DNA of 64,000 bases. It comes from an uncultured Acidobacterium sp. Its GTDB lineage: Bacteria > Acidobacteriota > Vicinamibacteria > Vicinamibacterales > UBA2999. Below the pieces are notes generated by a model that made no database searches, was not told the DNA's origin, and saw only the letters and a list, made by a program, of their open reading frames with translations. Of this stretch, positions 8,545 through 52,068 are shown piece after piece. Position 1 is the first letter of the stretch, and each line of letters begins with the position of its first letter. The stretch lies in NCBI GenBank assembly GCA_964628295.1, contig CAZVLS010000001.1, positions 10,250 through 74,249 on the forward strand, given 5' to 3'. The translations under genes were made by a program, and so were the position numbers.

Positions 8545-8609
8545 CCCTGCTAGCCCGCTGGCCCGCTGGCCCGCTAGCCCGCTGGCCCGCTAGCCCGCTA
8601 GCCCGCTGT
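8545..8609. repeat. tandem 8-mer array CCCGCTRG, about 8 units
   Basis: cccgctgg/cccgctag units with period 8, read directly. The array starts 3 nt after the stop codon of the minus-strand gene. Confidence 0.9.
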
Positions 8610-8611
8610 CC

Positions 8612-8962
8612 TTAAGGACAAGTCGCAGAAACCATCTTCACCGCGCTGACCTTCATGTAATGGTCGGCCTTCGGCGGAGTCGGCTTCATCGCTTCAGCTT
8701 CAGCGGCCGGCACGTTCACGCCGGTGATGTCGACCTTGTGGCCGACGTGCGGCGCGAGCGTGGCCTTCGATTCGACGATGGTGATCGTCTTGGGGCCCTT
8801 CTCGGCCGTGTTCTGAATCACACCGGCGGTCGCCGTGGCGCCCTTCTGCACACAGCCCGACATGGTGTGTTCAGCCGGCATCTTCTGCGCCGGTTCCTGC
8901 GCCAACACGGTTGCTGAGAGCGCAAAGGCGCCGGCAGCAGCAATTGTAAATACGCGGTTCAT
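8612..8962 (-). CDS. small secreted hypothetical protein
   Basis: ATG 8962 is preceded by GGAGGG. Signal peptide MNRVFTIAAAGAFALSATVLAQE. Cys residues near both ends. Confidence 0.6.
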   Translation of the reverse strand: MNRVFTIAAAGAFALSATVLAQEPAQKMPAEHTMSGCVQKGATATAGVIQNTAEKGPKTITIVESKATLAPHVGHKVDITGVNVPAAEAEAMKPTPPKADHYMKVSAVKMVSATCP

Positions 8963-9043
8963 AACTACCCTCCAAGAAGTCCAAACACCCACCCCAGCCG
9001 CGATATTCCCGGCGGGATGTGGATTCTACTCCCCGCGCGGCCG

Positions 9044-9072
9044 GCGGGCTATCAGGCTAGCGGGCTGACAGG
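9044..9072. repeat. short 8-mer array (GCGGGCTA family), about 3.5 units
   Basis: gcgggcta tcaggcta gcgggctg acagg, located just downstream of the regulator's stop codon. Confidence 0.7.
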
Positions 9073-9078
9073 ATGAGC

Positions 9079-9453
9079 TTAAGGTTTGCGCGCGGCTTTG
9101 ATCAGCGCGTCCATATGGTCGAGGTACTTCTCGAATGCGCGGCGGCCCGAAGCGGTGAGCTTGTAGTCGGTGCGTGGTGTGCGACCGGCGAAGGTCTTTG
9201 TGCACGACACGTAGCCGGCTTCCTCCAGCTTGCGCGCATGCACGCTGAGGTTGCCGTCGGTCGCGTTCAGCGCCGCCTTGAGATCGGTGAACGACAGTTC
9301 GTCACCGGCCGCGAGCGCGCTCACGATGCCGAGGCGCATGCGATCGTGCAACAGGCGATCGAGATTGGCGGCGATCTCGCCGCTCCTGGGCTCGAGCTGG
9401 ATTCTTGGGCGCGTGTCGGGTGGTAGCTTTCGCGCCGCGCTGGATTTGGTCAC
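9079..9453 (-). CDS. winged-helix transcriptional regulator (ArsR/MarR-like)
   Basis: RLGIVSALAAGDELSFTDLKAALNATDGNLSVHARKLEEAGYV matches the wHTH pattern. Confidence 0.7.
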   Translation of the reverse strand: MTKSSAARKLPPDTRPRIQLEPRSGEIAANLDRLLHDRMRLGIVSALAAGDELSFTDLKAALNATDGNLSVHARKLEEAGYVSCTKTFAGRTPRTDYKLTASGRRAFEKYLDHMDALIKAARKP

Positions 9454-9471
9454 GTTCGAGTCCTTTGCACC

Positions 9472-10056: not shown

Positions 10057-10181
10057 CAGTCCATGATAGCGCGCTGACTTTGAAATGCAAAGTGAGGGTT
10101 ACTTGGAGTACTCTTGCGGCGTTTGCTCTCGTCCTCCGTAGCGGTCTGCGCGATGGAGGATCTTCATTTTCTGGAGGCTTC

Positions 10182-11384: not shown

Positions 11385-11390
11385 AACAGA

Positions 11391-11523
11391 GGGTTCCAAG
11401 GGTTCCAAGCGTTCCAGTGGTTCCAAAGGCAGCGTTCTATCGGGGTTCCAGGGTCTCAGAACCTGAGGAACAGCGACAGAACGATGCCATTGGAACCGCT
11501 GGAACCTTTGGAACCCTGGAACC
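11391..11523. repeat. inverted 9-mer arrays (GGTTCCAAG family) forming a ~130-nt imperfect hairpin
   Basis: Left arm gggttccaagggttccaagcgttccagtggttccaaagg. Right arm ccattggaaccgctggaacctttggaaccctggaacc. A T-rich tract follows, then ATG 11533. Confidence 0.9.
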
Positions 11524-11532
11524 TTTTCTTTC

Positions 11533-13074: not shown

Positions 13075-13096
13075 CGCTCTGCGCGAAGGCGGACGA

Positions 13097-13777: not shown

Positions 13778-13851
13778 TTACCTGAGATGCCGTTACCGAG
13801 CGGGGAATTTCATTCTACCCCGGCCCGGAGGCAAATGCAGCTCAGCGAAAG

Positions 13852-15426
13852 CTAGTTTCCGGCTTCGCGATCGTAGCCGTAGATGTCGGGCTGGAAATGC
13901 AGCCCGCCATTCTCGTCAACCCAGGACGTGAAGTAGGCAATGTGCACGGGAATCGTCTGCTTCAACTTCACGTGCTTTTCGACACCCGAGCGCATCGACG
14001 CGAAGATCGCCTCGTCGGTCCAGTCGGAATAGCCCTTCAGCACGTACTTGGCGAGCATCTCGGGTTCCTCGACGCGCACGCAGCCGTGACTGAACGCGCG
14101 GCCGGGCTTCGCGAACAACGAATCCGCCGGCGTGTCGTGCAAGTAGACGTTGTGCTTGTTGGGGAACAGGAACTTCACGTGTCCCAGGGCGTTGCCGTCG
14201 CCAGGGCGCTGGCGAAACGCCAGGCCCTTGAGCGACGCAGGGTTATCCCAATCCACGTCAGAGGCATCGAGCGTCTGGGTGCCGGAAGACGACACGCGCA
14301 AGATCTCGATGCCCTGCCTGGCGAGATAACCGGGATCACGCGCAACTGCCGGTGCCGTCTCGTTCTCCGCGATCGTGTCGGGAATGTTCCAATACGGGCT
14401 GAACACCACGGTCTCCATGTCCTCGCTGAAGATCGGCGTGTTATTCCCTGGCTTCCCTACCACGACGCGGATGTCCATGACCGGCTTGCCGGCTTCGCGC
14501 GCGACCAAGTGAAAGTACGGAATGTTGACGAGAAAGTGGCGCTCGCCGAGCTCGTCCGGCATCCAACGCCACCGTTGCAGGTTGATCGCCACCTGTTGAA
14601 TGCGCCAGTCGAGCGGCACGTTAAACGCCGCCAGCGTCTTGTCATCAACCACGCCGGTGGCCGGAAGTGAATGCAACTCTTGAAACGACTTCACTGCCGC
14701 GGCCAGATCCCCTGATCCCTGGTCCCCGCTCCCTGATCCCTTCAAGTGCCCGCTGACCTGCAGGCGTTGACGCAGCTCGTTGTCCGAACGGGCGGTGGGC
14801 ACCTTCACCCACCCGCCCTTCTCGCGCTGGCCAATAAGATCGTCGAGTGCTTTCTGAAGCGCCGCGTATTCGGGGTGCGGCGGGCGTACGGCGTCGACGA
14901 ACGTGGTGGGATCATCGGTCGCCGCGGTGAGCGCGGCGATGAGATCCGGCATCTTGCGGCGTGCCTGGAAGTTGGCGTCCGGCGCCTGGCGCCCGATCGC
15001 GACATCGCGTCCGAACGCGAGCATTCCAGCGGTCAGCCGCGCATCAAATTCCGCGAGCTTCTCGAGACGCTCCGGCGACGCCTTGTCGATCTTCTCGATC
15101 GCCTGGCTCATCTCGAGCAATTCCGGCGCGCTGTAGTCCGACGCCTCGAATCCGTGCTGGCGCGCGGTGTTCAACACCATCAGTGCGGCCGCGCCCTTGT
15201 CAGTGGGTCGCCGGTGATTGACCCAGGCCGGCGCATGCTCGCGCTGTGTGTAGAACGCGCGCACATCTGTCCAGATGGCTGACTCAACTTTTGCAAGCCG
15301 GTCGCCTGCCACCACCTGCTGCAACGCAGGCGTGACTTCATGCGGGGCCGGTTTGCTGGCACAGGCGGCCAGCGCGATGAGCAACGAGGCGATGAGAGCA
15401 CGCACGTTGCTTCCAAAAAGCAACAA
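13852..15426 (-). CDS. murein L,D-transpeptidase (YcbB/LdtD-like)
   Basis: Peptidoglycan-binding-like repeat (AVKSFQELHSLPATGVVD) and YkuD catalytic motif VYLHDTP...SHGCVRV. TTG start in the ORF track. Confidence 0.85.
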   Translation of the reverse strand: MLLFGSNVRALIASLLIALAACASKPAPHEVTPALQQVVAGDRLAKVESAIWTDVRAFYTQREHAPAWVNHRRPTDKGAAALMVLNTARQHGFEASDYSAPELLEMSQAIEKIDKASPERLEKLAEFDARLTAGMLAFGRDVAIGRQAPDANFQARRKMPDLIAALTAATDDPTTFVDAVRPPHPEYAALQKALDDLIGQREKGGWVKVPTARSDNELRQRLQVSGHLKGSGSGDQGSGDLAAAVKSFQELHSLPATGVVDDKTLAAFNVPLDWRIQQVAINLQRWRWMPDELGERHFLVNIPYFHLVAREAGKPVMDIRVVVGKPGNNTPIFSEDMETVVFSPYWNIPDTIAENETAPAVARDPGYLARQGIEILRVSSSGTQTLDASDVDWDNPASLKGLAFRQRPGDGNALGHVKFLFPNKHNVYLHDTPADSLFAKPGRAFSHGCVRVEEPEMLAKYVLKGYSDWTDEAIFASMRSGVEKHVKLKQTIPVHIAYFTSWVDENGGLHFQPDIYGYDREAGN

Positions 15427-15428
15427 TC

Positions 15429-15488
15429 GGGCCAGCGGGCCAGCGGGCTAGCGGGCTAGCGGGCTAGCGGGCTAGCGGGCTAGCGGGC
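15429..15488. repeat. tandem 8-mer array GGGCYAGC, about 7.5 units (reverse complement of the 8545 array)
   Basis: gggccagc x2 then gggctagc x5, period 8. Fills the whole spacer between two minus-strand genes. Confidence 0.9.
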
Positions 15489-19222: not shown

Positions 19223-19230
19223 GAGCCCTT

Positions 19231-19282
19231 CAGGCTATCAGGCTTTCAGGCCCACAGGCGAATAGGCCAACAGGCCAACAGG
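19231..19282. repeat. tandem 8-mer array CAGGCNNN, about 6.5 units
   Basis: caggctat caggcttt caggccca caggcgaa taggccaa caggccaa cagg, located between divergent start codons. Confidence 0.85.
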
Positions 19283-20713: not shown

Positions 20714-20767
20714 AGTCGGCTACGGAAGAGCTTAAGGGAGGCGGCGGCGGAGCTATCATTCTTCGCC

Positions 20768-21697: not shown

Positions 21698-21700
21698 GTA

Positions 21701-21945
21701 GTCCACAGAATCAATCCACGGATTACACGGATTGCGCGGATAAGAATTCTGCCACCGAGGCACAGAGACTCAGAGCTGCGACGGCGCTGGGCGGCGTAGC
21801 CGCCGGCAGCGTCGATGAGCCCGGAATCACAAGCCTGGAAGACTCTCGGCTGGCTTGTGATCCCTGGCTCATCGACGCTGCGAGCGCGCGAGCAACGCTC
21901 GCGCTGCGCCGTCCACCATCCGTGTCATCCGTGTAATCCGTGGAC
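21701..21945. repeat. composite nested palindromic element, copy E1 (~245 bp)
   Basis: Outer 9-mer arms (cacggatta family), a cacagagg module, a GC stem and a central hairpin gatgagcccggaatcacaagcc/ggcttgtgatccctggctcatc. It is the reverse complement of the copy at 24411-24647. Confidence 0.9.
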
Positions 21946-21952
21946 CAAGTCC

Positions 21953-23216: not shown

Positions 23217-23311
23217 CCACCGAGACACAGAGGCACGGAGACAAGGGCGACGGCGGCTGCGCCGCCTGGCGCCGTCTGACTGCATTTCTCTATGTCTCTG
23301 TGCCTCTGTGG
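23217..23311. repeat. mini palindromic element E3 (cacagagg arms plus GC stem)
   Basis: Left arm ccaccgagacacagaggcacggagacaaggg, stem cgacggcggctgcgccgcctggcgccgtc, right arm ...tctctatgtctctgtgcctctgtgg. Matches an internal module of E1 and E2. Confidence 0.85.
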
Positions 23312-23327
23312 CCAATAAACTTTAGAG

Positions 23328-24410: not shown

Positions 24411-24647
24411 GTCCACGGATTACACCGATTGCACGGAATGAGCGACGGCGCCAGCGCGAGCTGCGCTCGCGCGCTCGCGGCGCCGATGAGACCGGAATCG
24501 CAAGCCGTCGAGATACTGCATCGGCTTGTGATTCCGGTCTCATCGGCGCTGCAGGCGGCTCCGCCGCCTGCGCCGTCTTGCCGTTTTCTCTGTGCCTCTG
24601 TGCCTCTGCGGCCAATCCAATCCGTGGAATCCGCGTAATCCGTGGAT
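24411..24647. repeat. composite nested palindromic element, copy E2 (~237 bp, inverted relative to E1)
   Basis: Starts the base after the stop codon. Aligns along its whole length with the reverse complement of 21701-21945, roughly three quarters identical by eye. Confidence 0.9.
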
Positions 24648-24671
24648 GAAATGTTACGCTTGTAGGTTCCC

Positions 24672-26309
24672 ATGATCGCGTTCGCCAACGTCAACAAGCA
24701 GTACGGCAAGCAAATCCTCTTCGTCGATGCCTCCTTCCAGCTCAATCCTGGTGAGAAGGCCGGGCTCGTCGGTCCCAACGGCGCCGGCAAGACCACCGTG
24801 TTCCGAATGATCACCGGCGAGGAAGCCCCGGATGACGGCGAGGTCACGGTGCCGAAGAAGCTGACGGTTGGCTACTTCCGGCAGGACGTGGAAGAGATGT
24901 CTGGCCGCTCGGTTCTCGATGAGGCGATCGCCGGCAGCGGCCGCGTGGGCGACCTGCATCATGAACTCGAAGAGTTGAACCAGGCGATGTCGGATCCGGC
25001 GCAGGCCGACGACATGGACAAGATCCTCGCGCGGTTTGGCGAGGTGCAGGAAGAGTACGACCACCTCGGTGGCTACGCGCTCGAAAGCCAGGCGCGCGAA
25101 GTGCTCCACGGGCTCGGGTTTGACGACGAGCGGATCGATGGTGATGTCGGCGCGCTGTCAGGCGGCTGGAAGATGCGCGTGGCGATGGCCCGCGTGCTGC
25201 TCGGCAAGCCCGACGTCCTGCTGATGGACGAACCGACCAACCACCTCGACATCGAATCGATCATCTGGCTCGAGAGCTTCCTCAAGCAGCACGACGGCGC
25301 GCTGCTGATGACGTCACACGACCGCGAGTTCATGAATCGCATCGTGTCGAAGATCTGCGAGATCGACGGCGGCGAGATCACCGTCTACTCGGGCAACTAC
25401 GACTTCTACGAGCGCGAACGCGCCACGCGCGAAGCGAATCGCGAGGCCGCTTACGCGCGCCAGCAGGCGATGCTCGCCAAGGAACAGCGCTTCATCGAGC
25501 GCTTCAAGACCCACGCCGCCAAGGCCGCGCAGGTGCAGAGCCGCATCAAGGCGCTCGACAAGATCGAGAAGATCGAACTGCCGAAGCGCCGCACGGTCGT
25601 GAAGTTCGACTTCCGGGACCCGCCGCGCTCGGGCGACCAGGTCGCCGTGATCGAGAACCTGTCGAAGGCCTACGGCAAGCGCGTGATCTACGACGACTTC
25701 AGCCTGACGATTCGCCGCGGCGAACGCTGGGCCGTGATGGGCCGCAACGGCGCCGGCAAGACAACGCTGCTGAAGATCCTGTCAGGCAACCTCAAACCGG
25801 ATGCGGGCGACGTGCGCTTGGGCGCGAGCTTGAAGATGGGCTACTTCGCGCAGCAGTCGCTCGACACGATGGACGCCGACCTCACCATCATCGACCAGCT
25901 GCAGAACGACTTCCCGCGCGAGGGGCTCGGCGCGCTGCGCTCGTTGGCCGGCGCGTTCCAGTTTTCCGGCGAAGACATCGACAAGAAGATTCGTTCGCTC
26001 TCAGGCGGCGAGAAGTCGCGTCTCGCCATGGCGCGCATGCTGTTCGATCCGCCGAACTTCCTCGTGCTCGACGAGCCGACCAACCACCTCGATCTGGCGA
26101 CCAAGGAGATGCTCGTCGATTCGCTGAAGGCGTTCGAAGGCACGATGATCTTCGTGTCGCACGATCGCGCGTTCCTGCGCGGGCTGAGCAATCGTGTGCT
26201 TGAACTCGGTGGTGAGAGCGGCACCGATTCGACGCCGAACGCCTACCCGGGGACCTACATCGAGTACGTGGATCGCACGGGGCACGAGGCGCCGGGAATT
26301 CATTCGTAG
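24672..26309 (+). CDS. ABC-F family ATPase (YbiT/EttA-size class)
   Basis: Two cassettes ([18 protein letters not shown]), LSGG signatures and no TM domain. Confidence 0.9.
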
Positions 26310-26329
26310 CGAGTGAGGGGCGCCCCTCC

Positions 26330-27583
26330 TCAGGCTGGGCGCTGCTGCGCAGTCTGCTTGCGCATCACCAGCACCTTGTCGATGCGGCGGCCGTCCATGT
26401 CCATGACCTCGAAGCGCATGCCGCCCCACTCGAAGACGTCGGCGGCCTTTGGCACCCGGCCGAGGCGCGCCATCACGAAGCCACCGATGGTGTGGTACGC
26501 GCCGGCTTCATCTTCGGGCAACGCATCCATCCCGAAATGCGTCGTCACATCCTCCATCGGCGCGGAGCCATCGACCAGCCACGATCCGTCCGCGCGGGAC
26601 ACGAACGCGCCGATCGCTTCGCTCGCGTCGGCGGGCAGGTCGCCGACGATCGCGGTCAGCAAGTCCGTCACCGTCACCAGGCCTTCGACCGCGCCGTACT
26701 CATCCATGACCAGCGCGACGTGCTTGTGCGAGCCACGGAATGACTCGAGCAGTTGCACCGCCGGCATTGAGTCGGGCACGAACAGCGCTTCCTTCACCAG
26801 AGCACGGAGATCGATCCGCGCGCCCTTGAATGCCAGCGGCAGCAGGTCCGCGGAACGGACGATGCCGAGCACTTCATCGAGGCCGCCGTGGCACACCACG
26901 AACTGCGTGTGGGAATGCGACGCGAGGAACTCGCGCAACTCTTCTTCCGACGCGTCGACGTCGATCCATTCGATGTCTGGGCGCGGCGTCATGATCGCGG
27001 CCACGCGCTGGTCGCCCAACTGGAACACGCGCTGCACGATGTTCTCTTCGGTGGCGCCGACGGCGCCGGTCTCCGCCCCCTGGCTGATGAGCGCCTTGAT
27101 TTCGTCTTCCGTCAGGTTCGGTTCGGCGTCGCCCTTGATGCCGAACAAGTGCATCACGACGTTGGTGGATGAGGTCAGTAGCGCAACGATCGGGCCGCCG
27201 ATCCGCGCGAGCGCCATCATCGGCCTGGCGACCCACGACGCGATCGCTTCGGGGCTGTTCAGGCCGATGCGCTTTGGCACCAGTTCGCCAAAGATCAGCG
27301 AGGCGACAGTAATGCCGGTGACCACCAGGCCAAACGCGATGCCCTCTGCGTAGGGCGCCAGCACCGCGATGCGCGCGATCGGTTCGGCAAGCGGTTCCGC
27401 GAGCCGGGAACCGCCATACGCGCCGGCCAGCACGCCGACCAGCGTGATGCCGAACTGCACGGTCGACAGGAACCGGTTGGGATCATGCGCCAGCGCCAGC
27501 GCCGCCTTCGCCCGGGTGTCACCCTCTTCGGCGCGCTGCTGCAGCCGCACCTTCCGGGCGGCGACCACGGCGATCTCCGACAT
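26330..27583 (-). CDS. CNNM/TlyC-family protein (DUF21, CBS pair, CorC_HlyC); 5' end unresolved
   Basis: Domain order can be read from the translation. 22 further in-frame hydrophobic codons lie upstream of ATG 27583 without a canonical start (see findings). Confidence 0.85.
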   Translation of the reverse strand: MSEIAVVAARKVRLQQRAEEGDTRAKAALALAHDPNRFLSTVQFGITLVGVLAGAYGGSRLAEPLAEPIARIAVLAPYAEGIAFGLVVTGITVASLIFGELVPKRIGLNSPEAIASWVARPMMALARIGGPIVALLTSSTNVVMHLFGIKGDAEPNLTEDEIKALISQGAETGAVGATEENIVQRVFQLGDQRVAAIMTPRPDIEWIDVDASEEELREFLASHSHTQFVVCHGGLDEVLGIVRSADLLPLAFKGARIDLRALVKEALFVPDSMPAVQLLESFRGSHKHVALVMDEYGAVEGLVTVTDLLTAIVGDLPADASEAIGAFVSRADGSWLVDGSAPMEDVTTHFGMDALPEDEAGAYHTIGGFVMARLGRVPKAADVFEWGGMRFEVMDMDGRRIDKVLVMRKQTAQQRPA

Positions 27584-27750
27584 CGCGAAGACACCGTTTG
27601 CAAGAATGAGCAGGAATATGACGAGGAGTTCGGTGCCGATACCGCCATTTTACCCCTTGGCGCCGTCCCGCCGCTCGACGGTCAAAACCCGCCATTCGAC
27701 GCGTCAACACGAACGGGACCCACCTCAGCCCGTATAGTCAGGTAACCCAA

Positions 27751-28596
27751 ATGTTGACCCTCTCGAACGTCCGGAAAACATTCGGCCGCATCGTGGCCGT
27801 TGACGGTCTTTCGCTCTCGGTTCGCAAAGGCGAACTGTTCGGCCTGCTGGGGCCAAACGGCGCCGGCAAGAGCACTTCCGTGAGCATGGCGGTCGGGATG
27901 CTGACGCCGGACTCGGGCACCGTCAGCATCGAGGGTCACGGCGATCCCGGTTCGCCCGACGTGCGCAAGGTGATCGGCGTGGCACCGCAGGCTCTGGCGC
28001 TGTATGACCTGCTGACCGCCGAAGAGAACCTGCGCTTCTTCGGCGAAGTCTACGGGCTGAGCGGCGCGGTGCTGAATGAGCGCGTCACGTGGTGCCTCGA
28101 CTTCGTGGGTCTGACTGAGCGCAAGGGCGATCGTGTTGGCGGGTACTCCGGCGGCATGAAGCGGCGGCTCAACCTCGCGGCCGCGGTGATCCACGATCCG
28201 CAGTTGCTGCTGCTCGACGAGCCGACGGTCGGTGTCGATCCGCAATCACGCAACAAGATCTTCGACAGCATCGAGGCGCTGCATCGTGACGGCCGCACCA
28301 TCATCTACACCACGCACTACATGGAGGAAGCCGAGCGGCTCTGCCAACGCATTGCGATCGTCGATGCGGGCAAGCTCCTCGCCCTGGGGACGCTGAGCGA
28401 ATTGCTCAAGGAACACGGTGGACCGCCGACGCTGATCGTGCGGAGCCACGACACCGAGCAGCGATACCAGGTGGCTGATCCGCTGGCTGAGCTCAATCGC
28501 ATTGCGGCGCAGACGCCGATTGACGAATTCCAGATGGAACGCCCCACGCTCGAGCAAGTGTTCCTGCGTCTGACGGGGCGGAGCATCAGGGACTAG
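27751..28596 (+). CDS. ABC transporter ATP-binding protein (ABC-2/DrrA type)
   Basis: Walker A GPNGAGKST, signature YSGGMKRRL, Walker B LLLLDEP. Confidence 0.9.
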   Translation: MLTLSNVRKTFGRIVAVDGLSLSVRKGELFGLLGPNGAGKSTSVSMAVGMLTPDSGTVSIEGHGDPGSPDVRKVIGVAPQALALYDLLTAEENLRFFGEVYGLSGAVLNERVTWCLDFVGLTERKGDRVGGYSGGMKRRLNLAAAVIHDPQLLLLDEPTVGVDPQSRNKIFDSIEALHRDGRTIIYTTHYMEEAERLCQRIAIVDAGKLLALGTLSELLKEHGGPPTLIVRSHDTEQRYQVADPLAELNRIAAQTPIDEFQMERPTLEQVFLRLTGRSIRD

Positions 28597-28628
28597 ACGG
28601 GCCTACGGGCCTACAGGCGAACAGGCGA
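28597..28628. repeat. 8-mer array (acgggcct x2, acaggcga x2) forming the whole ATPase-permease spacer
   Basis: Begins the base after the stop codon (TAG 28594-28596) and ends 6 nt before ATG 28635. Confidence 0.85.
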
Positions 28629-28634
28629 ATACAC

Positions 28635-29885: not shown

Positions 29886-29954
29886 AGTAGCAAGATGCAA
29901 GTAGCAGGTGGCAGGAAAAGCACTTCTTGATACTTGCTACTTGCTACTTGATAC
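29886..29954. repeat. inverted heptamer arrays (AGTAGCA / TTGCTAC) forming a hairpin
   Basis: agtagca agatgca agtagca ggtggca ... ttgatac ttgctac ttgctac ttgatac. Starts the base after the stop codon. Confidence 0.9.
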
Positions 29955-29963
29955 TGTCTGGGC

Positions 29964-30791: not shown

Positions 30792-31019
30792 TACCGACGC
30801 CGGCCCGTTCAGCGGCCATTCAGGCGATTGGATTCAGCCTCCGTGCGATTGAAGCGCGGTACGAAATGGGCGGGGAACTTTTTCTGTCGGGTGTGACCGG
30901 CGACATGACGCGGGGACGAACCGCACGTCGCCGGGTTCGCGGCCGTCGACGGTCGATCGGTTCGTCCCGATGCCACTGGGCACCTCCTTTGCTCTTTGCA
31001 GCACCCGGAGGTTTCCAAG

Positions 31020-33923: not shown

Positions 33924-34035
33924 GAGGGTAATAAAGGTTATAAAAAGTTATAAAGGGTTACAGAGGTTACGCGATTCAACCCCTGTAACCCTTGTAACCC
34001 TTGTAACCCTTGTAACCCTTGTAACCGTTGTAACC
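33924..34035. repeat. inverted 9-mer arrays (GGTTAYAAA / CCCTTGTAA) forming a ~110-nt hairpin
   Basis: The right arm is cccttgtaa x4-6 with exact period 9. The left arm is a degenerate complement. Starts the base after the stop codon and ends 7 nt before GTG 34043. Confidence 0.9.
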
Positions 34036-35304: not shown

Positions 35305-37944
35305 CTAGTCGGCTCGCAGCGCGATGACCGGATCGATCCGCGACGCTCGCCATGCCGGAATCGCGGTGGCAACGAGTGCGATCCCCGTAAGCAGGCCGGT
35401 CACCACCCACAGGCTCGTCGGATCCGCCGGTGACAACCCGTTGAGCAGGCTGCCCATCGCACTGCCGACGGCCACTCCGCCCCCCAGCCCGATGACCAGT
35501 CCAAGCGCAACCAGTGACAGCGACTGGGAGGACACGAGTCGAATCACGTCCCACGCACTCGCGCCAAGCGCCATGCGCGTGCCGAATTCCGCGGTCCGCA
35601 AACCGGCGGAGTACGAGACGAGGCCGAACAGGCCTGCGCAGGCGAGCATCAGCGCCACGCCGGCAAACCCGGCGAGCACTGCGATGATGACGTCGTCACT
35701 CGAGCGGGCGCGAGCGAAGCCCTGTGAGAACGTTTCCATGCCCTCGATGGGAATGGCGGGAACGGTCGCCGCCATCGCCGTCCGGACCGCGCTCATGATC
35801 GCGGCGGCATCGCCCACGGACCGCAGCAAGTAGGTGACGCGGCGCGGTGGCTGCGCCATCGCCACCCAGATCCGGACCCCTGGCCGCGTGAAATCCATGA
35901 ACAGCACGTCGCTGCTGACACCGATCACGCGCACGGAATGCCGGTTGGCTCCGATCGAGTACGACACGCTGCGTCCGACTGCAGCCTCGACGCCGCCGAA
36001 ATAACGGACGGCCGCTTCGCGACTCACGACCGCGACGTCGCTCGCCGTGGATGGCCACCAGGTGCCGCTGAGGAGACGCAGTCCCATGGCTGCGGCGCCT
36101 TCGGCCGAAACGTGCGAGACAACCGCGGTCGGCGCGGACTCACCTGGCGCGACGGATTGGCCGTCGACGCTAAAGGGGGCGCTCTCTTCGCCTCCGAGAA
36201 TCGGCATCGCGGAAATCATCGCGGCAGTCTCGACACCGGCGGTGCGAGCCAGCGCCTCGCGCACGGCAGCCGCGGCGGCCGCGGCCTGCCGCGAATCCGG
36301 ATACAGCGCGTCGTTGAAGTCGAGGCTCAACGCCATCTTGTCTGCGCCATCAATCCCGGTTGGCTTGCCATAGATCGCGCCGACGCTGCGCGCCGCGAGC
36401 GAAGCGACCATCAACAGCACGACGGCAAGGGCCACCTGCGCCACCACCAGCCATCCACGGCCGCGCTGTGATGCCGTTGCCCCTCGAACACCACTGGCCG
36501 CCAGAAGCTGCCGCACATCGGTGCGAGCCACCGCGCGGGCGGGCGCAATCGAAAACAGGAGCGGGCAGACCAGCGCGAGCACGGCGACGAACGACAGTTC
36601 GTGCAGGTCGATCGCCACCTGCTTGATGATCGGTTCGGCGGCGAGCCACTGAATGATCTGCAGGCCGGCGTATGCCAATGGCATGGACAGCACGGCCCCG
36701 CCGATCGCGAGCGCCGCCCCTTCGACCACGAACTGGCGAATGACCCGAGCGCGTCTCGCGCCGAGCGCGGCGCGGACCGCGAGCTCTCGCTGCCGTGCCA
36801 TGGACCGAACCATGACAAGGTTGGACACATTGGCCGTGGCAATGGCCATGATCAACCCGACCGACAGCAGGAACAACGCGATCACGATCCACACGTTGTC
36901 GCCACCGGCGAGTTCCTGTACCGGGACGAGCCGCGCCTTCCAGCCCCCATTGGTGTCTGGATACTCGGTCGCCAGGGCGTCGCCGATCGTGGCGACCTCG
37001 GCGGCTGCACTCGCAAAGGTCGCGCCCGGCTTCAGGCGCGCCAGGATGCGAAGGTCGCGCACCGTGCTGGGAGAGTCGTCGTTGATGACCATCGGCAGCC
37101 AGATGTCGAACGCGGCCATGCTGCCAAACTCGAGCTCGGGCTTCATGACGCCGACAATGCTGTGAAACTCCCGGCCAATCTGCATCGTCTGGCCGATGAC
37201 GTCAGGACGTCCGGCGTATTCTTCCTGCCAGTATCGATGTGAAAGGACGACAACCTTGGACGACGCCGGGCCATCATCGCCGGGGGATACGGGACGACCA
37301 ATCAAGGCGGTCTGCCCCAGTGCTGCCATCGCATCGCCGGTCACAAGCGCCACGGACAGGGTGCGCGACTGACCATCCTTGATGAGCGCCGCGCGGGAGG
37401 GTGATGGTCGCATCACCGAGACCTTCTCGAGCGATGCGGCGCGATCGCGATAGGCCACGTAGTCGAGCGCTGAGACACGCATCCGGTTGTCCGAGCCCTT
37501 TGTGTCACTCGCAAATACGGAGACCACCACCTGCGGGTCATCAGCCGGGATGCCGCGAAACAGGATGAGATCGGCAAACGCAAACCCAATGGTGGCCGCA
37601 CCAATGGCCAGCGCCAGGGTGCCGACGATGATGCCGGACGTCCCGGGATTGCGGACGAACATGCGACCGGCGTGGCGAACGTCGCTGATGAAGTCATGCA
37701 TGAAAGGCGATCTCCTGAAATAGTGAAGACGCGGAGTGCGCGACGGTTCCGTCAAGTAGCGCGCGGTCAGCGTCAGGGTTTCCCGCCAGTACCACCACCC
37801 CGATGGGTGCTTGCGGTAGTCCTCGCGAAGGTCGCCGAGAATGCTCTCGCCGCGCTTGCCGAGAGGCAGTACCCGCTTCAAGATCCAGTCGGCAAACTGG
37901 GGAGGCCTTGCGGCTCCCGGTTCCCGGCTCCCCGCTCCCGTCAC
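35305..37944 (-). CDS. ADOP-family duplicated FtsX/MacB-like permease with permease-prefix domain
   Basis: The N-terminal prefix (ILGDLREDYR) is followed by two MacB-periplasmic-plus-FtsX modules. Overlaps padR by 4 nt. Confidence 0.85.
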   Translation of the reverse strand: MTGAGSREPGAARPPQFADWILKRVLPLGKRGESILGDLREDYRKHPSGWWYWRETLTLTARYLTEPSRTPRLHYFRRSPFMHDFISDVRHAGRMFVRNPGTSGIIVGTLALAIGAATIGFAFADLILFRGIPADDPQVVVSVFASDTKGSDNRMRVSALDYVAYRDRAASLEKVSVMRPSPSRAALIKDGQSRTLSVALVTGDAMAALGQTALIGRPVSPGDDGPASSKVVVLSHRYWQEEYAGRPDVIGQTMQIGREFHSIVGVMKPELEFGSMAAFDIWLPMVINDDSPSTVRDLRILARLKPGATFASAAAEVATIGDALATEYPDTNGGWKARLVPVQELAGGDNVWIVIALFLLSVGLIMAIATANVSNLVMVRSMARQRELAVRAALGARRARVIRQFVVEGAALAIGGAVLSMPLAYAGLQIIQWLAAEPIIKQVAIDLHELSFVAVLALVCPLLFSIAPARAVARTDVRQLLAASGVRGATASQRGRGWLVVAQVALAVVLLMVASLAARSVGAIYGKPTGIDGADKMALSLDFNDALYPDSRQAAAAAAAVREALARTAGVETAAMISAMPILGGEESAPFSVDGQSVAPGESAPTAVVSHVSAEGAAAMGLRLLSGTWWPSTASDVAVVSREAAVRYFGGVEAAVGRSVSYSIGANRHSVRVIGVSSDVLFMDFTRPGVRIWVAMAQPPRRVTYLLRSVGDAAAIMSAVRTAMAATVPAIPIEGMETFSQGFARARSSDDVIIAVLAGFAGVALMLACAGLFGLVSYSAGLRTAEFGTRMALGASAWDVIRLVSSQSLSLVALGLVIGLGGGVAVGSAMGSLLNGLSPADPTSLWVVTGLLTGIALVATAIPAWRASRIDPVIALRAD

Positions 37945-38280: not shown

Positions 38281-38328
38281 TTCCTGTTGGCCCGTTCGCC
38301 TGTAGGCCTGTTCGCCTGTTCGCCTGTT
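38281..38328. repeat. tandem 8-mer array NGCCTGTT, 6 units
   Basis: ttcctgtt ggcccgtt cgcctgta ggcctgtt cgcctgtt cgcctgtt. This is the complement of the ACAGGCGA family. Confidence 0.85.
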
Positions 38329-38329: not shown

Positions 38330-38343
38330 GTAGACGAGTCTAC
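38330..38343. promoter_or_regulatory. candidate operator palindrome GTAGAC-GA-GTCTAC upstream of padR
   Basis: Perfect 6-2-6 inverted repeat, 57-70 nt upstream of the padR start, in the divergent region shared with the receptor gene. Confidence 0.25.
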
Positions 38344-38625
38344 TTTGTGAACGGTTCCCCAAAATGCGATGTTTGGGGTCAGGCCCCACTCGCACGGTCC
38401 GTCCCAGAGCTGGTCACGGATTTTGGTCGATTCGTCCCTCAAAATTGCTGTATTCGGGCCTGATTTCGTCACATTCGCCGTCACTTTCGCCACCGGTGCA
38501 GTGACAAAATATTTGCCGTTGGGTTCTACCCCTCTTTGTTCGGGCTGACCGGCGCCCACACGCTGTCAGCTGTTGTGTTCAAACCCTTGCCGGGAGGTAC
38601 CCCGGTTGTTTTGGAGGAGCAAGAA

Positions 38626-41637: not shown

Positions 41638-41685
41638 CAACAGGCCTAAGGGCCATCCGGCCACCAGGCCGTCGGCCAGGCCAGC
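41638..41685. repeat. degenerate 8-mer array CNNNNGGC, about 5 units
   Basis: caacaggc ctaagggc catccggc caccaggc ... begins the base after the stop codon. Confidence 0.7.
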
Positions 41686-41699
41686 TCGACACTACGGAA

Positions 41700-41730
41700 G
41701 GCCCGGGTTATCAAGCCCGGGCCTTTCGTT
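41700..41730 (+). terminator. rho-independent terminator
   Basis: ggcccggg / cccgggcc stem with an 8-nt loop, followed by TTTCGTTT. Confidence 0.7.
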
Positions 41731-41992
41731 TGTACGATCATTCAGTACGTTGAATCTCGACTATCCAATATCCTGAATTCGTCCCTGAATTCAGCCGTCC
41801 GGTCCCAGGCAACCCTGGGTTTATTGGCGCAATTAGACCCATTTTCCATCCCAATCCTTACCGCTTCCGGTGGCACAAATGCTGCTCCGTGGGACGTGCA
41901 CCTCTTTAGTTGGGCCGAACTGCCGATAAGGCGGGACGGCTTGTGCAATGACCTTCGCCGGGGATGGATTCCGGCGTATTGGAGGATGGGAA

Positions 41993-44965: not shown

Positions 44966-44990
44966 AGACCGCGAGCGTCTGAAACAACCG

Positions 44991-45022
44991 GGCCCCGGGG
45001 AGAAATCCCCGGGGCCTTTTTT
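44991..45022 (+). terminator. strong rho-independent terminator
   Basis: ggccccgggg-agaaat-ccccggggcc followed by TTTTTT. Confidence 0.85.
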
Positions 45023-45036: not shown

Positions 45037-45073
45037 GAAGGCCGACAGGCGGCCGGGCCTACGGGCCATCAGG
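45037..45073. repeat. short 8-mer array (ACAGGCGG/CCGGGCCT/ACGGGCCA)
   Basis: About 4 degenerate units directly after the terminator. Confidence 0.6.
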
Positions 45074-46833: not shown

Positions 46834-46870
46834 GCGTCATCGGCATCTGCGCCATCTGCGCCATCTGCGG
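46834..46870. repeat. 9-mer array GCCATCTGC, about 4 units, between kinase stop and regulator start
   Basis: gcgtcatcg gcatctgc gccatctgc gccatctgc gg, ending 2 nt before the kinase stop codon. Confidence 0.85.
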
Positions 46871-46871: not shown

Positions 46872-48080
46872 CTAGGCAACAGCCTCGCCCTCACGCATCC
46901 CTGTCTCACTTGCAAGCTCCGCCATCGGAATGGCGATGCACACGAGCAACCCGCCCTCGGCGGGCTGCCGGAATTCAAACCGGTGCAGCGACCCGTATAA
47001 ATGATCGAGTCGCGACCGGGTGTTGCTAAGCCCGACGCCGCGATTGAAGTCAGTCAATCGCGCGGCTGAGAGCCCGACGCCGTTGTCCTGGACATCGAGC
47101 TCGAGTAACGCGCCGTTGCGGCGGGCCCGCACGGTGACCTGGCCAGGTGTGGGCCTGGGACCAAGGCCGTGCTTGATGGCGTTTTCGACGAGCGGCTGGA
47201 GCAAAAGGTTGGGGACCAACGCATCCAGCGTGTCCGCCTGGACGTCGAATACCACTGTCAGACGGTCGCGGAAGCGGGTTTGTTCGATCTCCAAGTACTT
47301 GGAGAGGAAATCGAGCTCCTCTTTCAACGACACTTCCTGGACGCCGACCCGCTGCAACGACATGCGCAGTAGGTCACTGAGCCGCGCGATCATCTCGTCC
47401 GCCGCTTCGACGTCGCGATGCATGAGCGCGGAAATCGTGTTCAGCGTGTTGAACAGGAAGTGCGGCTGCATCTGCCGCTGCAAGGTGTGCAGGCGCGCTT
47501 CAACGAGCCGTGTCTCGAGCTGCGCCGCATTCAGTTCGCGGGCGCGCGCCTCGTGGAGATACTTGAGCGCCGTGCCGACGCCGACGATCGTCCAGTAGGT
47601 CATCATCTCCCAGTCGAAGTTCAGGAACAGCATCTCCTGCGCTTCGTGGAGCCACGTATCGAGCGATTCTCCTATGAGCCAGTAGGTGCCCATGCGGAGC
47701 GCAACGGTGACGACGACGTGAATCGACGTGGCGATGATGACGCCCGCGATGTGCACCGGAATGGCCATCTTCCAGGTCGCGCGATCGAAAGGAAATCGAC
47801 GCGTGATCCAGAAGATCGCCGGCGCGACGGCCGCCCACGAATACCAGTACCCGAGATTCAGCGTCAGCAGCAGCCCGAAGGCCGCCGGCTTGTCGGTGAA
47901 CGTCGAGACGAAATAGAACGCGGCGAACGCTGAGAAGAACCCGAGAGCCGTCGCGACGCCGAAGATGACGCGGGTGGGAACGAGCCCGTGGGAGGGAGCC
48001 ATAGCGGCAATATCCGTCTGCCGCCACCTGCGGTCAACCGGAAAGGCATTCGTCCCAACACTCGTCCCATGACGAAGCAT
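46872..48080 (-). CDS. LytS-type sensor histidine kinase (His_kinase plus HATPase_c)
   Basis: Multi-TM N-terminus, motif QMQPHFLFNTLNTISAL, and a GHKL ATPase C-terminus. Confidence 0.9.
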   Translation of the reverse strand: MLRHGTSVGTNAFPVDRRWRQTDIAAMAPSHGLVPTRVIFGVATALGFFSAFAAFYFVSTFTDKPAAFGLLLTLNLGYWYSWAAVAPAIFWITRRFPFDRATWKMAIPVHIAGVIIATSIHVVVTVALRMGTYWLIGESLDTWLHEAQEMLFLNFDWEMMTYWTIVGVGTALKYLHEARARELNAAQLETRLVEARLHTLQRQMQPHFLFNTLNTISALMHRDVEAADEMIARLSDLLRMSLQRVGVQEVSLKEELDFLSKYLEIEQTRFRDRLTVVFDVQADTLDALVPNLLLQPLVENAIKHGLGPRPTPGQVTVRARRNGALLELDVQDNGVGLSAARLTDFNRGVGLSNTRSRLDHLYGSLHRFEFRQPAEGGLLVCIAIPMAELASETGMREGEAVA

Positions 48081-48108: not shown

Positions 48109-48166
48109 GAACGCAGAAGGCGCGGACAGAGCCGCAGAAAGCACAGAAAGCCCAGAGAATTCTGAA
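48109..48166. repeat. degenerate 9-mer array (GCACAGAAA family)
   Basis: gccgcagaa agcacagaa agcccagag aattctgaa, related to the cacagagg module of E1-E3. Confidence 0.6.
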
Positions 48167-48220
48167 ATGCGACAAGCGCGCCGGGTTCCCAAAATCCAGC
48201 GCGTTGAAGATCAGGCGGTT

Positions 48221-50161
<1,941 letters not shown>

Positions 50162-50234
50162 ATGCTCAGGCTAGCAGGCTATCGGGCTGGCGGGCTAGCA
50201 GTCTTGCTAGCCTCCTGACCCGCTGGCCTGATAG
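50162..50234. repeat. inverted 8-mer arrays (CAGGCTAG/GGGCTAGC family) forming a hairpin between divergent starts
   Basis: Left arm caggctagcaggctatcgggctggcgggctagca. Right arm tgctagcctcctgacccgctggcctgatagcc. Confidence 0.85.
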
Positions 50235-50245
50235 CCTTCACCCTC

Positions 50246-51949
50246 ATGAACCGACGCCGCTTCTTCTCGACCTTACTGGCCGCTGGCGCAGCTACGCCGG
50301 CGTTGGCCCAACAGGCCGCCGCTCCTCAACGGATCGACCGACTGCGCCTCGACGCCGCCGAGAGCATCTTCGGTGTCGATTTCACCGAGGCCGAGGAGCA
50401 GATGGCGCTCAACAGCGTCAATCGCAACCTCGCCAGCTTCGAGGAACTGCGCAAGCTCAACGTGCCGCTCGATACCGAGCCGGCGATCACATTCCGGCCA
50501 TACCTGCCTGGCAAGAAGCCGACCGGACGTTCGACGCCAGGCGCGAAGCTCAAGGTGAGTCGCCCGGTCGTGCCGAATAACCTGACGCCGGAGCAGATTG
50601 CGTTCCTGCCGGTGACGTCGCTCGCGGCGCTGATCGAGACGAAGCGCATCACCTCCACCGAACTCACGAAGATCTACCTCGATCGTCTGAAGAAATACGA
50701 CCCGGTCCTGCACTGTGTCGTCACGCTCACCGAAGAACTCGCGTTGAAACAGGCAGCCGCCGCGGACGCCGAGATCAAGGCCGGTAAGTATCGCGGGCCG
50801 CTGCATGGGATTCCGTGGGGCGCAAAGGACCTGCTCGCGACCAAGGGCATCAAGACGACGTGGGGGGCAACGCCTTATAAGGACCAGGTCATCGACATCG
50901 ACGCCACCGTCGTCGAACGCCTCAACGCGGCCGGCGCGGTGCTGGTCGCCAAGCTGTCGATGGGCGCGCTCGCGCAGGGCGGCGTGTGGTTCGGCGGCTC
51001 GACGCGCAATCCGTGGAACACCGAGCGGAGTTCGAGCGGATCGTCCGCGGGTCCTGGCTCCGCTACCGCGGCGGGGCTCGTCGGCTTCTCGATCGGCACC
51101 GAGACGCTCGGCTCGATCATCTCTCCTTCGGTGACCAACGGCGTCACCGGCTTGCGCCCCACATACGGCCGCGTCAGCCGTCATGGCGCCATGGCGCTCT
51201 CCTGGACGATGGACAAGATCGGTCCGATGTGCCGATCGGTCGAGGATTGCGTGCTGGTGCTGAATGCGATCTACGGCAGTGACGGCAAGGACGACACGTG
51301 CACGGATGCGCCGTTCGAGTGGAATCCTGACCGGCCGCTTGCGTCCATGCGTATCGGCTACATCCAGCGCGAATTCGAGAACGCGTCGAACGTCAACAAC
51401 CCGACCGAAGCGCAGAAGACCACGGCGACGAACCGGCAGGCGATGTATCGCGATGCGCTCGATCAGTTCCGCCAGCTAGGCGCAAAGCTCGAGCCGATCT
51501 CGATGCCGGACTTCCCCGCCGGTGCGATCGGTTTCGTGTTGAGCGCGGAAGCGGCGGCGGCGTTTGATGATCTGACAAGAGACAAGGAGAAGCTCGCGAC
51601 GCTGACCGGTCAGTCACCGGGTGACTGGCCGAACACTTTCCGCAGCTCCCGCTTCATTCCGGCGGTGGAATACATCCGCGCCATGCGCGCGCGCACGCTG
51701 CTGATGCGCGAGATGGACAAGGTAATGTCGCAGTACGACGCGTTCCTCAGCCTCGCGCCTGGAACGTCAAGCCTGCAGGTCACCAACCTGACCGGCCATC
51801 CCGCGATCGCGATGAAGTGCGGCTTCGTCGACAATATGCCGCAGTCGATCATGGTGACCGGCCGGCTCTACGACGAAGCCACGATTTGCCGCATCGCGCT
51901 GGCCTACGAACAGGCTACTGACTGGCACAAGAAACACCCGTCGCTATAG
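50246..51949 (+). CDS. amidase (amidase-signature family) with Tat signal
   Basis: Tat signal MNRRRFFSTLLAAGAATPALAQQ. AS motifs GIPWGAKD and SSSGSSAGPGSATAAG. Confidence 0.9.
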   Translation: MNRRRFFSTLLAAGAATPALAQQAAAPQRIDRLRLDAAESIFGVDFTEAEEQMALNSVNRNLASFEELRKLNVPLDTEPAITFRPYLPGKKPTGRSTPGAKLKVSRPVVPNNLTPEQIAFLPVTSLAALIETKRITSTELTKIYLDRLKKYDPVLHCVVTLTEELALKQAAAADAEIKAGKYRGPLHGIPWGAKDLLATKGIKTTWGATPYKDQVIDIDATVVERLNAAGAVLVAKLSMGALAQGGVWFGGSTRNPWNTERSSSGSSAGPGSATAAGLVGFSIGTETLGSIISPSVTNGVTGLRPTYGRVSRHGAMALSWTMDKIGPMCRSVEDCVLVLNAIYGSDGKDDTCTDAPFEWNPDRPLASMRIGYIQREFENASNVNNPTEAQKTTATNRQAMYRDALDQFRQLGAKLEPISMPDFPAGAIGFVLSAEAAAAFDDLTRDKEKLATLTGQSPGDWPNTFRSSRFIPAVEYIRAMRARTLLMREMDKVMSQYDAFLSLAPGTSSLQVTNLTGHPAIAMKCGFVDNMPQSIMVTGRLYDEATICRIALAYEQATDWHKKHPSL

Positions 51950-51951
51950 AC

Positions 51952-52068
51952 CGACGACAAACACGAAGGACACGAAGGACACGAAGGCTGCTTTGGAAAA
52001 TGTCAGTGCTGCTAAGCGGCACTTGTATTTTCCAGACTTGGCTTCGTGCCCTTCGTGTCCTTCGTGTT
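51952..52068. repeat. inverted 9-mer arrays (ACACGAAGG / CCTTCGTGN) forming a ~115-nt hairpin between convergent genes
   Basis: acacgaagg x3 on the left and cttcgtg x3 with period 9 on the right. The centre carries ggaaaatg.../...attttcc. Confidence 0.9.

Follow-up and report, generated by a model that had tools for sequence, protein, structure and literature searches.

Tandem arrays of 7-9 nt units in the intergenic spacers of a Vicinamibacterales genome segment

The spacers between genes in a 64,000-nt stretch of DNA from an uncultured Acidobacterium sp. of the order Vicinamibacterales (GenBank assembly GCA_964628295.1, contig CAZVLS010000001.1, positions 10,250 to 74,249 of the forward strand; hereafter the window) carry tandem arrays of oligomers with a period of 7, 8 or 9 nt, some of which form long palindromes. 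The arrays had been noticed in a preliminary description made from the sequence alone, and they raise the question of whether they are genuine and exceed chance, of what units they are built, and whether they act as RNA or DNA elements, are moved or written by a dedicated machinery or are simply tolerated. The present analysis confirmed the observation and supported its interpretation in part. We lean toward the explanation that the arrays are DNA-level, fast-turnover, slippage-prone and self-seeding repeats typical of Vicinamibacterales, which survive where selection tolerates them.

Occurrence of the arrays in the window and in related genomes

Arrays were called with Tandem Repeats Finder (TRF) and by direct reading of the sequence. 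Genes were called by third-position GC content (GC3) and open reading frame (ORF) length, and most were checked with Pfam in a scan covering 48 window proteins. Nearly all of the previously named loci with tandem 7-9 nt units were recovered at their coordinates. Between 8.5 and 52 kb, 18 of the 22 spacers of at least 38 nt bear an array (15 clear, three degenerate), in agreement with the earlier statement that almost every spacer is occupied; the four array-free spacers lie at 13778-13851, 20714-20767, 27584-27750 and 30792-30995. The degenerate arrays (41638-41685, 45037-45073 and 48109-48166) are missed or scored low by TRF, but the first two still show GGC at 8-nt intervals. No arrays were found in the window spacers outside this region, that is, in the first 8.4 kb and the last 12 kb.

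Arrays of period 7-9 cover 606 of 4865 intergenic nucleotides (12.5%) but only 298 of 59135 coding nucleotides (0.5%). When the spacers were shuffled 200 times with preservation of dinucleotides, a mean of 6.4 nt (maximum 69) and 0.27 arrays resulted, compared to the 18 arrays observed, so that the enrichment implied by the preliminary description holds. Periods 4-6 showed no excess over shuffled window spacers, and periods 10-13 were represented by one array only.

The arrays are also present in independent data. Three Logan short-read contigs from independent runs are 100% identical to window positions 24768-29953, including the arrays at 28597 and 29886, and all three terminate within the 29886 hairpin, where short reads meeting such repeats are expected to stop. 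An assembly artefact is therefore ruled out. Similar arrays also occur in long-read contigs of metagenome-assembled genomes (MAGs) of relatives. The array loci of the window and an adjoining terminator are as follows (copy numbers by TRF where given).

8520-8547, minus strand: canonical intrinsic terminator with a 12-bp stem and a U-tract, adjoining the 8545-8609 array
8545-8609 (TRF 8549-8608), minus strand: octamer array CGGGCYAG, 7.4 copies, between the stop codon of gene 8612-8992 and the intrinsic terminator
9044-9072 (TRF 9044-9066, 2.9 copies), plus strand: about 3 octamer copies (CGGGCTAT CAGGCTAG CGGGCTGA), antisense to the minus-strand genes on both sides
11388-11527, unstranded: inverted pair of about 9-nt units (GGGTTCCAA, 4 copies; TGGAACC, 4 copies) with arms at 11390-11426 and 11490-11526, then TTTTCTTTC; hairpin of 140 nt, -95.6 kcal/mol, z -12.9
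14710-14741, minus strand: heptamer-like array (GGGATCA type) within an L,D-transpeptidase gene, encoding GSGSGDQGSGD in a variable linker
15428-15488, plus strand: octamer array CGGGCYAG, 7.6 copies, filling an entire 64-nt spacer
19230-19282, plus strand: octamer array CAGGCNNN, 6.5 copies, in a divergent spacer
21698-21952, unstranded: E1, a 255-nt nested palindrome filling a convergent spacer
23224-23312, unstranded: E2, a short E form with CACAGAGG / CTCTGTGC octamer arms around one small GC hairpin
24411-24660, unstranded: E3, the E1 element in inverted order, starting at the first base after a TAG stop codon
28597-28628, plus strand: octamer array (CGGGCCTA, 2 copies; CAGGCGAA, 2 copies) between ABC ATPase and permease genes
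29886-29955, unstranded: heptamer inverted pair AGTAGCA / CTTGCTA
33924-34035, unstranded: inverted pair of 9-10-nt units (GGTTATAAA / AACCCTTGT, 6.4 copies)
37911-37940, minus strand: heptamer array (GGGAGCC type) encoding the N-terminus of an ADOP-type permease
38281-38328 (TRF 38283-38328), minus strand: octamer array CAGGCGAA, 5.8 copies, 8 nt upstream of the padR start codon
41638-41685, plus strand: degenerate octamer array with GGC spacing of 8, 8, 8, 7 and 5, between a stop codon and a canonical terminator
45037-45073, plus strand: degenerate octamer array downstream of a canonical terminator (44990-45017)
46834-46870 (TRF 46844-46869, 2.9 copies), minus strand: nonamer array GCAGATGGC, 3 copies, between histidine kinase and LytTR regulator genes
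48109-48166, minus strand: degenerate array of 9-10-nt units (GCTTTCTGY)
48455-48534, minus strand: heptamer inverted pair AGAGTGC / GCACTCT, in frame within glgB
50162-50234 (array called at 50167-50234), unstranded: inverted pair of CRGGCTAG-type octamers between the divergent amidase and glgB genes
51952-52068, unstranded: nonamer inverted pair (ACACGAAGG, 3 copies; CTTCGTGTC, 3 copies) in a convergent spacer, arms at 51961-51987 and 52042-52067; hairpin of -75.6 kcal/mol, z -12.9

For comparison, 48 Vicinamibacterales MAG loci (labelled L004, L007 and so on), matching the CorC-like protein encoded at 26330-27583 with 54-90% amino-acid identity, were taken from species-representative genomes, some of the match records bearing wrong taxon labels. 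The same scan provided cyanobacterial and Chloroflexota outgroups at about 50% identity. By TRF, such arrays are spread over the whole order; they reach 18 copies and are built from many different units. Within the 893 kb of related loci searched, intergenic arrays of at least 3 copies numbered none at period 5, 7 at period 6, 55 at period 7, 24 at period 8, 21 at period 9, 3 at period 10 and 2 at period 11. This sharp limitation of the unit length to 7-9 nt is the most striking regularity of the arrays. Heptamers make up 55 of the 100 clade arrays of period 7-9, and octamers and nonamers prevail in the window. The cyanobacterial outgroup loci contain 1-5 heptamer arrays per 10 kb, a density similar to that in Vicinamibacterales, and the cyanobacterial heptamers named earlier are a good analogue; in the three Chloroflexota loci no arrays were found by TRF.

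The divergent CorC/ABC spacer (27584-27750 in the window) is array-free in the window and in L004. Its orthologues carry tandem 13-mers (CACGGAGGTTCCT, CACGGGGGTGCTC) or 10-mers (GGGCAGGTGC) in L017, L019, L021, L022 and L026; in L033, L040 and L044 this spacer holds inverted pairs of heptamers. Units can thus exceed 9 nt.

Unit families and palindromic forms

A single consensus, C-R-G-G-C-Y-A-R, accommodates all nine octamer arrays of the window (48 units). The GGC at positions 3-5 served as alignment anchor and is fixed by construction; position 1 is C in 43 and position 2 a purine in 44 of the 48 units. The pattern RGGC-N4-RGGC-N4-RGGC occurs 25 times, whereas spacings of N3, N5 or N6 do not occur at all. 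This CRGGCYAR family is almost confined to the closest relatives (L004, L005, L009, L016, L047, L084 and L087). In other genomes, one unit is likewise found at several unrelated spacers (L045, L025, L018, L046, L022 and L028), as exemplified by AAGAATC (six arrays in L045) and AAGGCAG (three arrays in L025). Each genome thus carries a limited repertoire of units. The earlier claim that the unit differs from locus to locus without a consensus is therefore only partly true: many families exist, with 89 distinct units among 127 clade arrays, but the nine octamer arrays share one consensus.

Runs of GGG or CCC were found in 46 of the 127 units (36%, compared to about 25% expected), leaving 64% of the units without a G-run. 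Among arrays of at least 4 copies, 32 of 79 have the G3-run in every unit that characterizes heptamers of the G-quadruplex type, and the arrays at 8549 and 15428 are among them. As a general explanation, G-quadruplex formation was rejected, given that only 36% of the units hold a G-run.

Scans of IMG/VR viral contigs for (CAGGCGAA)n and (GGGCTAGC)n gave 0 and 1 matches, respectively. The sole match, L088, is an AT-rich viral contig with (GCTAGCGG)x10 followed by (AGGCG)x22 at 6276-6506, and its similarity to the window octamer was taken to be coincidental.

Two inverted octamer arrays of one family (8549-8607 and 9044-9066) bracket a minus-strand ORF of 126 amino acids (8612-8992), an arrangement resembling a gene cassette between inverted repeats. 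The protein has a signal-peptide-like N-terminus by eye; it gave no Pfam match, its exact sequence is not on record elsewhere, and it bears no transposase mark. Directly downstream of the 8549 array, a 360-amino-acid protein with HHH_8 and PHP domains is encoded at 7405-8487 (minus strand). It apparently consists of the ends of a PolX-type repair polymerase with the polymerase core seemingly absent, and any tie of this protein to repeat formation would be pure speculation.

The preliminary description had also held that the arrays are usually paired as inverted arrays. This was not borne out: in the window, only 8 of the 18 array spacers hold an inverted pair or a nested palindrome, and with a criterion of at least 2 reverse-complement units within 250 nt, 54 of the 127 clade arrays (43%) are paired, i.e., 50% of the heptamers, 27% of the octamers and 41% of the nonamers. 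Paired or palindromic loci of the window are 11388-11527, 29886-29955, 33924-34035, 50162-50234, 51952-52068, E1, E2, E3 and the pair within glgB. Upon folding, the paired loci form long hairpins (70-255 nt) with z of -4 to -13, compared to -0.2 to -3 for single octamer arrays.

The largest palindromes, E1 and E3, are nested structures of 255-261 nt in opposite orientation. Nonamers of the sequence CACGGATTA form the outer stem, followed inward by octamers of the CACAGAGG type, and the interior holds a pair of small GC hairpins together with a long central one whose apex, ACAAGCC...GGCTTGT, is conserved. Six E copies with this apex were found in the window, L007 and L009. The arms match within each copy, but the units differ between copies, terminal units such as CACGAAGG and CACAGATG among them. 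At the site of E1, L009 has an 8-nt spacer lacking the element. E3 is absent from L004, where the orthologous spacer has 36 nt, and present in L007 and L008.

Turnover, position and arrays inside genes

The arrays change by whole units. L040 and L044 (94% identity) differ by six insertions or deletions of 4 nt or more, five of which correspond precisely to a single 9-nt unit within an array. Entire arrays appear or disappear as well. The junction between the ABC ATPase and permease genes measures 1-14 nt in most relatives with the adjacent gene pair and contains no copy of the unit (e.g., TGA-CCC-ATG), and it is longer yet array-free in L017 (77 nt) and L022 (133 nt); a (ACAGGCGA)n array of 38 nt occupies it in the window and one of 53 nt in L004. 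In the spacer behind the permease gene, AGTAGCA/CTTGCTA in the window is replaced by CTGGCTA in L004, CTTCGTG in L019 and CACAGAGGA hairpins in L011, L014 and L015. At the 33924 site, L004 has a plain terminator-like hairpin instead of the nonamer hairpin. The arrays at 46834 and 48109 are absent from L084, L086 and L087 between conserved flanks, non-repetitive sequence taking the place of the latter, and at the 50162 site L084 has a single array of the same octamer family. The two arms of a palindrome can change together: in the 29886 pair, a T-to-G difference between the window and L004 affects four of four right-arm units and the matching A-to-C difference three of four left-arm units.

Next to the 46834 array, the LytS-type histidine kinase is a single gene of 402 amino acids in the window (46872-48080) and is represented by two ORFs (284 and 117 amino acids) in L084/L085 (L084 11727-12953), which may reflect a frameshift or a pseudogene.

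With respect to the genes, the arrays lie preferentially behind stop codons. Twenty of 66 array ends are located within 5 nt of a stop codon, compared to 8 expected, and the median distance is 15 nt to the stop and 54 nt to the start codon. Arrays occupy 15% of the divergent and 19-26% of the other spacers. The five arrays said to begin directly after a stop codon (24411, 28597, 29886, 33924 and 41638) do so in every case. Proximity to stop codons and a somewhat lower frequency in divergent spacers would result if arrays persisted in places that encode nothing else, and the same distribution is reported for Xanthomonas. In two cases, the 38281 array and the array of L004 at the 28597 site, the last partial unit ACAGGA lies at Shine-Dalgarno distance from the start codon, suggesting how the insertion of an array between translationally coupled genes can be tolerated.

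The earlier picture of intergenic arrays is correct for the strong enrichment in spacers but incomplete, as in-frame arrays within genes (48455-48534, 14710-14741 and 37911-37940) had been missed. As judged against a solved GlgB structure, the heptamer pair in glgB lengthens a loop in the C-terminal domain by 18 residues (GVQSAEGVAGDHSALSTL). Among 83 Vicinamibacterales homologues, this loop contains from 0 to about 50 residues of 7- or 8-residue peptide repeats: in L087 it is encoded by 19 tandem CAGGCSAT octamers in frame and in L086 by an in-frame palindrome of about 170 nt, (AGAGTGC)n/(GCACTCT)n, and L084 (89% identity) has no insert. Similarly, a peptidase gene of L021 contains a 51-nt heptamer array in frame that a close relative, L026, lacks. 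The permease N-terminal array (37911-37940) is common to homologous, possibly paralogous, genes of L007, L008 and L015 (51-53% amino-acid identity), and some homologues bear a complementary array deeper in the gene. The padR stop codon and the GTG start of the permease overlap (GTGA, 37941-37944), the heptamer array beginning a few codons into the permease gene. A change by one unit in the permease N-terminal or glgB tracts would shift the reading frame. In phase-variable contingency repeats such changes switch genes, typically those of surface proteins, whereas the genes affected here are ordinary metabolic genes.

By Pfam, the window encodes three TonB-dependent receptors that contain a CarboxypepD_reg domain and, adjoining the padR gene, an FtsX/MacB permease in duplicate; these genes indicate Acidobacteriota as the source. 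The leaders of the receptor genes (30792-30995, 38340-38535 and 41760-41947, and orthologous spacers of L004-L049) share conserved blocks across many genomes (GATTGGAT, GGTTGAAG, TTCGTCCC, and GGGCAC..(C/T)TTGCTC just before the start codon), which may represent a promoter or 5' leader element. A densely packed glycosyltransferase/polysaccharide cluster occupies the last 12 kb of the window. An Rfam scan of the whole window at the gathering thresholds yielded the gene for tRNA-Ser(GGA) (3356-3445), located within a long spurious ORF (2161-3522), and no match to the arrays or E1-E3.

Candidate explanations and relation to known repeats

In the explanation that we favor, the observed gain and loss of whole units would be caused by replication slippage. 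New arrays arise at sites where relatives have neither an array nor a copy of the unit, including an operon junction of 1-3 nt and permissive protein loops, in which only arrays in frame are retained. Since unit families recur at unrelated sites of one genome, new arrays were probably copied from existing ones rather than grown locally, for which template switching during repair or replication, or mobilization in trans, would be candidates. In the single orthologous pair compared (29886), both palindrome arms had changed in concert, and arms pair equally well on either strand, which points to homogenization at the level of DNA, e.g., by intrastrand template switching in quasi-palindromes, and not to selection on an RNA fold. 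Finally, selection would remove harmful arrays, leaving them against stop codons, in spacers and in tolerant loops. A dedicated cellular function is, we think, unnecessary to explain the arrays; stem-loops at mRNA 3' ends, ACAGGA ends that resemble Shine-Dalgarno sequences before some start codons, and coding tracts prone to frameshifts are likely side effects.

Several points speak against this explanation. Its weakest fit is the invariant CRGGC core, which plain slippage does not predict and which, as a conserved stretch of five bases, is the expected product of a sequence-specific reader or writer. The persistence of certain arrays at orthologous positions could reflect function: those at 29886 and 28597 are present in the window and L004, and that at the permease N-terminus in homologues of about 52% identity. 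No donor array was found whose unit variants follow the same order as in a recipient, which leaves the copying step conjectural, and no target-site duplication was seen between filled and empty sites at 24411, 28597, 21698 and the L021 peptidase gene. Among the 48 proteins of the 64-kb window scanned with Pfam, none is a transposase, a reverse transcriptase or a Y1 transposase. In addition, the crude GC3-based gene calls in the related loci render the positional statistics approximate.

A function at the RNA level appears unlikely. Inverted arrays could act as stem-loops in the 3' untranslated region that terminate transcription or protect mRNA 3' ends, as do repetitive extragenic palindromic (REP) sequences and bacterial interspersed mosaic elements (BIMEs), and single arrays could bind an RNA-binding protein. 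The high stability of the paired arrays, the excess of array ends near stop codons, the terminator-like hairpin of L004 at the 33924 site, the TTTTCTTTC directly behind the 11388-11527 hairpin and the joint change of the arms at 29886 are all compatible with such a role. However, selection on RNA would favor G-U pairs on the transcribed strand, and no such signature was observed: of 30 co-directional spacers, 16 gave the more stable fold on the sense strand and 14 on the antisense strand, and 23 spacers with strong hairpins contained 137 G-U pairs in sense and 142 in antisense orientation. Selection at the RNA level was therefore rejected. A U-rich tail (at least five T within 10 nt downstream) follows only 1 of 26 array hairpins, and the genuine terminators are separate, so that the array hairpins do not qualify as intrinsic terminators. 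A scan with a terminator consensus identified three strong intergenic sites, two of which (8520-8547 on the minus strand and 44990-45017) stand apart from the arrays, whereas the third is a minus-strand site inside the 33924 array hairpin; a further terminator at about 41695-41735 was seen only in the fold. As a canonical terminator sits beside the 8545-8609 array, the array is not itself the terminator. Moreover, more than half of the arrays have no partner and are unfolded, arrays also occur in divergent promoter spacers, at an operon junction and in coding loops, and the orientation of the CRGGC octamers relative to transcription (9 sense, 4 antisense by crude gene calls) is not significant.

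A function at the DNA level seems similarly unlikely, be it that the arrays offer periodic sites to a nucleoid-associated or sequence-specific protein or that they form non-B structures (G-quadruplex, i-motif, cruciform) organizing supercoiling, replication or recombination. The invariant core at an exact spacing of 8 nt in nine arrays, the restriction of unit families to a genome or clade and the strand symmetry of the palindromes would fit, as would the excess of G3-run units, the match of GGGCTAGC-type arrays to a G3N5 quadruplex pattern and the formation of G4 structures in vitro by the GGGAATC repeats of Xanthomonas (PMC4692102). This is opposed by the majority of units without a G-run and by the great unit diversity. 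Arrays are also gained and lost between close relatives without visible replacement, those in coding loops make poor sense as a binding platform, and no candidate protein is known.

More doubtful still is that the arrays are written or read by a dedicated system, that is, a templated insertion machinery of the reverse transcriptase or Y1 type, or a genome-wide periodic code for an oligomeric nucleic-acid-binding protein. It is based on the shared CRGGC core, the clade-restricted families and the seedless appearance of arrays at new sites, and the core keeps a sequence-specific writer or reader in play. If templated insertion of tandem units without target duplication were true, the arrays would be among the smallest mobile elements known.

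The least probable reading takes the palindromes, above all E1-E3, for non-autonomous elements of the miniature inverted-repeat transposable element (MITE), palindrome-associated transposable element (PATE) or REP-like type, moved by a transposase encoded elsewhere, with the tandem units as terminal repeats: E1 and E3 are polymorphic for presence (although absence could equally be due to deletion), the six copies in three genomes combine a conserved core with differing terminal units, their ends (GTCCACGGATTAC) look like terminal inverted repeats, in-frame insertion recalls the Rickettsia palindromic elements, and IS200/IS605 and REP-associated Y1 transposases reportedly insert without target duplication, but the compared sites lack a target-site duplication, the window lacks a transposase gene, terminal inverted repeats are restricted to the palindromic forms (E1, E3 and paired arrays), and arrays with the same unit have unrelated flanks.

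Among described repeats, the preliminary description had rightly set the arrays apart from CRISPR and from classical REP/BIME elements. The units are contiguous and 7-9 nt long, whereas CRISPR arrays have repeats of 24-48 nt and unique spacers of similar length. REP sequences measure 20-40 nt, carry a GTAG or CGTC tag and follow a single consensus within each family (Di Nocera et al., 2013, PMC3733652). The arrays share with REP/BIME elements the extragenic palindromes downstream of genes, the high copy number and the lack of target-site duplication; they differ in arms composed of tandem oligomers of many sequences and in hairpins of 70-255 nt. No REP-associated transposase was seen among the 48 window proteins scanned with Pfam. 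From MITEs they differ in having terminal inverted repeats in the palindromic forms only and no visible target-site duplication. Rickettsia palindromic elements are said to be about 100-150 nt long with a family consensus and not to be built of tandem 7-9 nt units; common to both is the in-frame palindromic insertion that adds a peptide to a tolerant region, here the GlgB loop.

The cyanobacterial short tandemly repeated repetitive (STRR) sequences are reportedly heptamers with defined consensus sequences from heterocystous cyanobacteria. They resemble the present arrays in having short tandem units in spacers at similar density and several unit families per genome; here, the units are 7-9 nt long with other sequences, the phylum is Acidobacteriota, and inverted pairing is reportedly much commoner than in STRR. 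To our knowledge, none of the units listed equals an STRR consensus.

The closest resemblance in published work is to the heptamers GGGAATC of Xanthomonas and GGGGA(C/T)T of Nostoc, which are tandem, overwhelmingly intergenic and of unknown function, form many convergent inverted pairs (70 cases in X. campestris), lie near or overlap the upstream stop codon, are scarce between divergent genes, and vary in length and sequence among close species (Rehm et al., 2015, PMC4692102). The intergenic location, the proximity to the upstream stop codon and the frequent inverted pairs are shared. Those genomes have one G-rich heptamer family each; here, there are many families with periods of 7, 8 and 9, mostly without a G-run, in another phylum; composite palindromes of nested structure (E1-E3) occur as well, and coding loops have been invaded in frame repeatedly. 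The definition of G-quadruplex heptamers, a run of 3-4 G in every unit of at least 4 units, does not describe the present arrays in general, as only 46 of the 127 units contain GGG or CCC. As relayed in PMC4692102, Mrazek et al. (2007) found an excess of heptamer-class tandem repeats in some non-pathogenic bacteria, for which polymerase slippage has been proposed. Their long simple sequence repeats (units of 5-11 nt), like the STRR sequences, can be grouped with the Xanthomonas and Nostoc heptamers; they are a general statistical class which, as far as the citing paper conveys, includes neither Vicinamibacterales nor CRGGCYAR or array-armed palindromes. The TAACTGA repeats of Beggiatoaceae lie upstream of start codons, and the papers of Subirana and Messeguer concern repeats of at least 10 nt (20-21 and 52 nt). 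A survey of short tandem repeats from 2025 does not mention the phylum Acidobacteriota, and the literature searched, in which Mrazek et al. (2007) was represented by the citing paper, contained no description of such repeats for Acidobacteria. In the best reading, by analogy, the arrays would be the acidobacterial counterpart of the cyanobacterial STRR and the Xanthomonas GGGAATC repeats. New here are the phylum, the three unit lengths within the sharp 7-9 limit, the octamer family, the nested composite palindromes and the repeated in-frame invasion of one protein loop.

Vicinamibacterales are abundant in soil and freshwater and mostly known from metagenome bins. The repeats take up about an eighth of the spacer DNA, break short-read assemblies exactly at the arrays and insert peptide repeats into enzymes, and thus affect assembly, binning, gene calling and protein-family alignments across the order. 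The heptamer repeats of cyanobacteria and Xanthomonas, themselves still unexplained, gain in these arrays a second and richer counterpart that is phylogenetically independent. With their three unit lengths, the CRGGCYAR family, palindromes whose arms change concertedly and datable gains and losses, the arrays make the long-standing questions of why the units are 7-9 nt long and how arrays reach new sites testable by comparative genomics.

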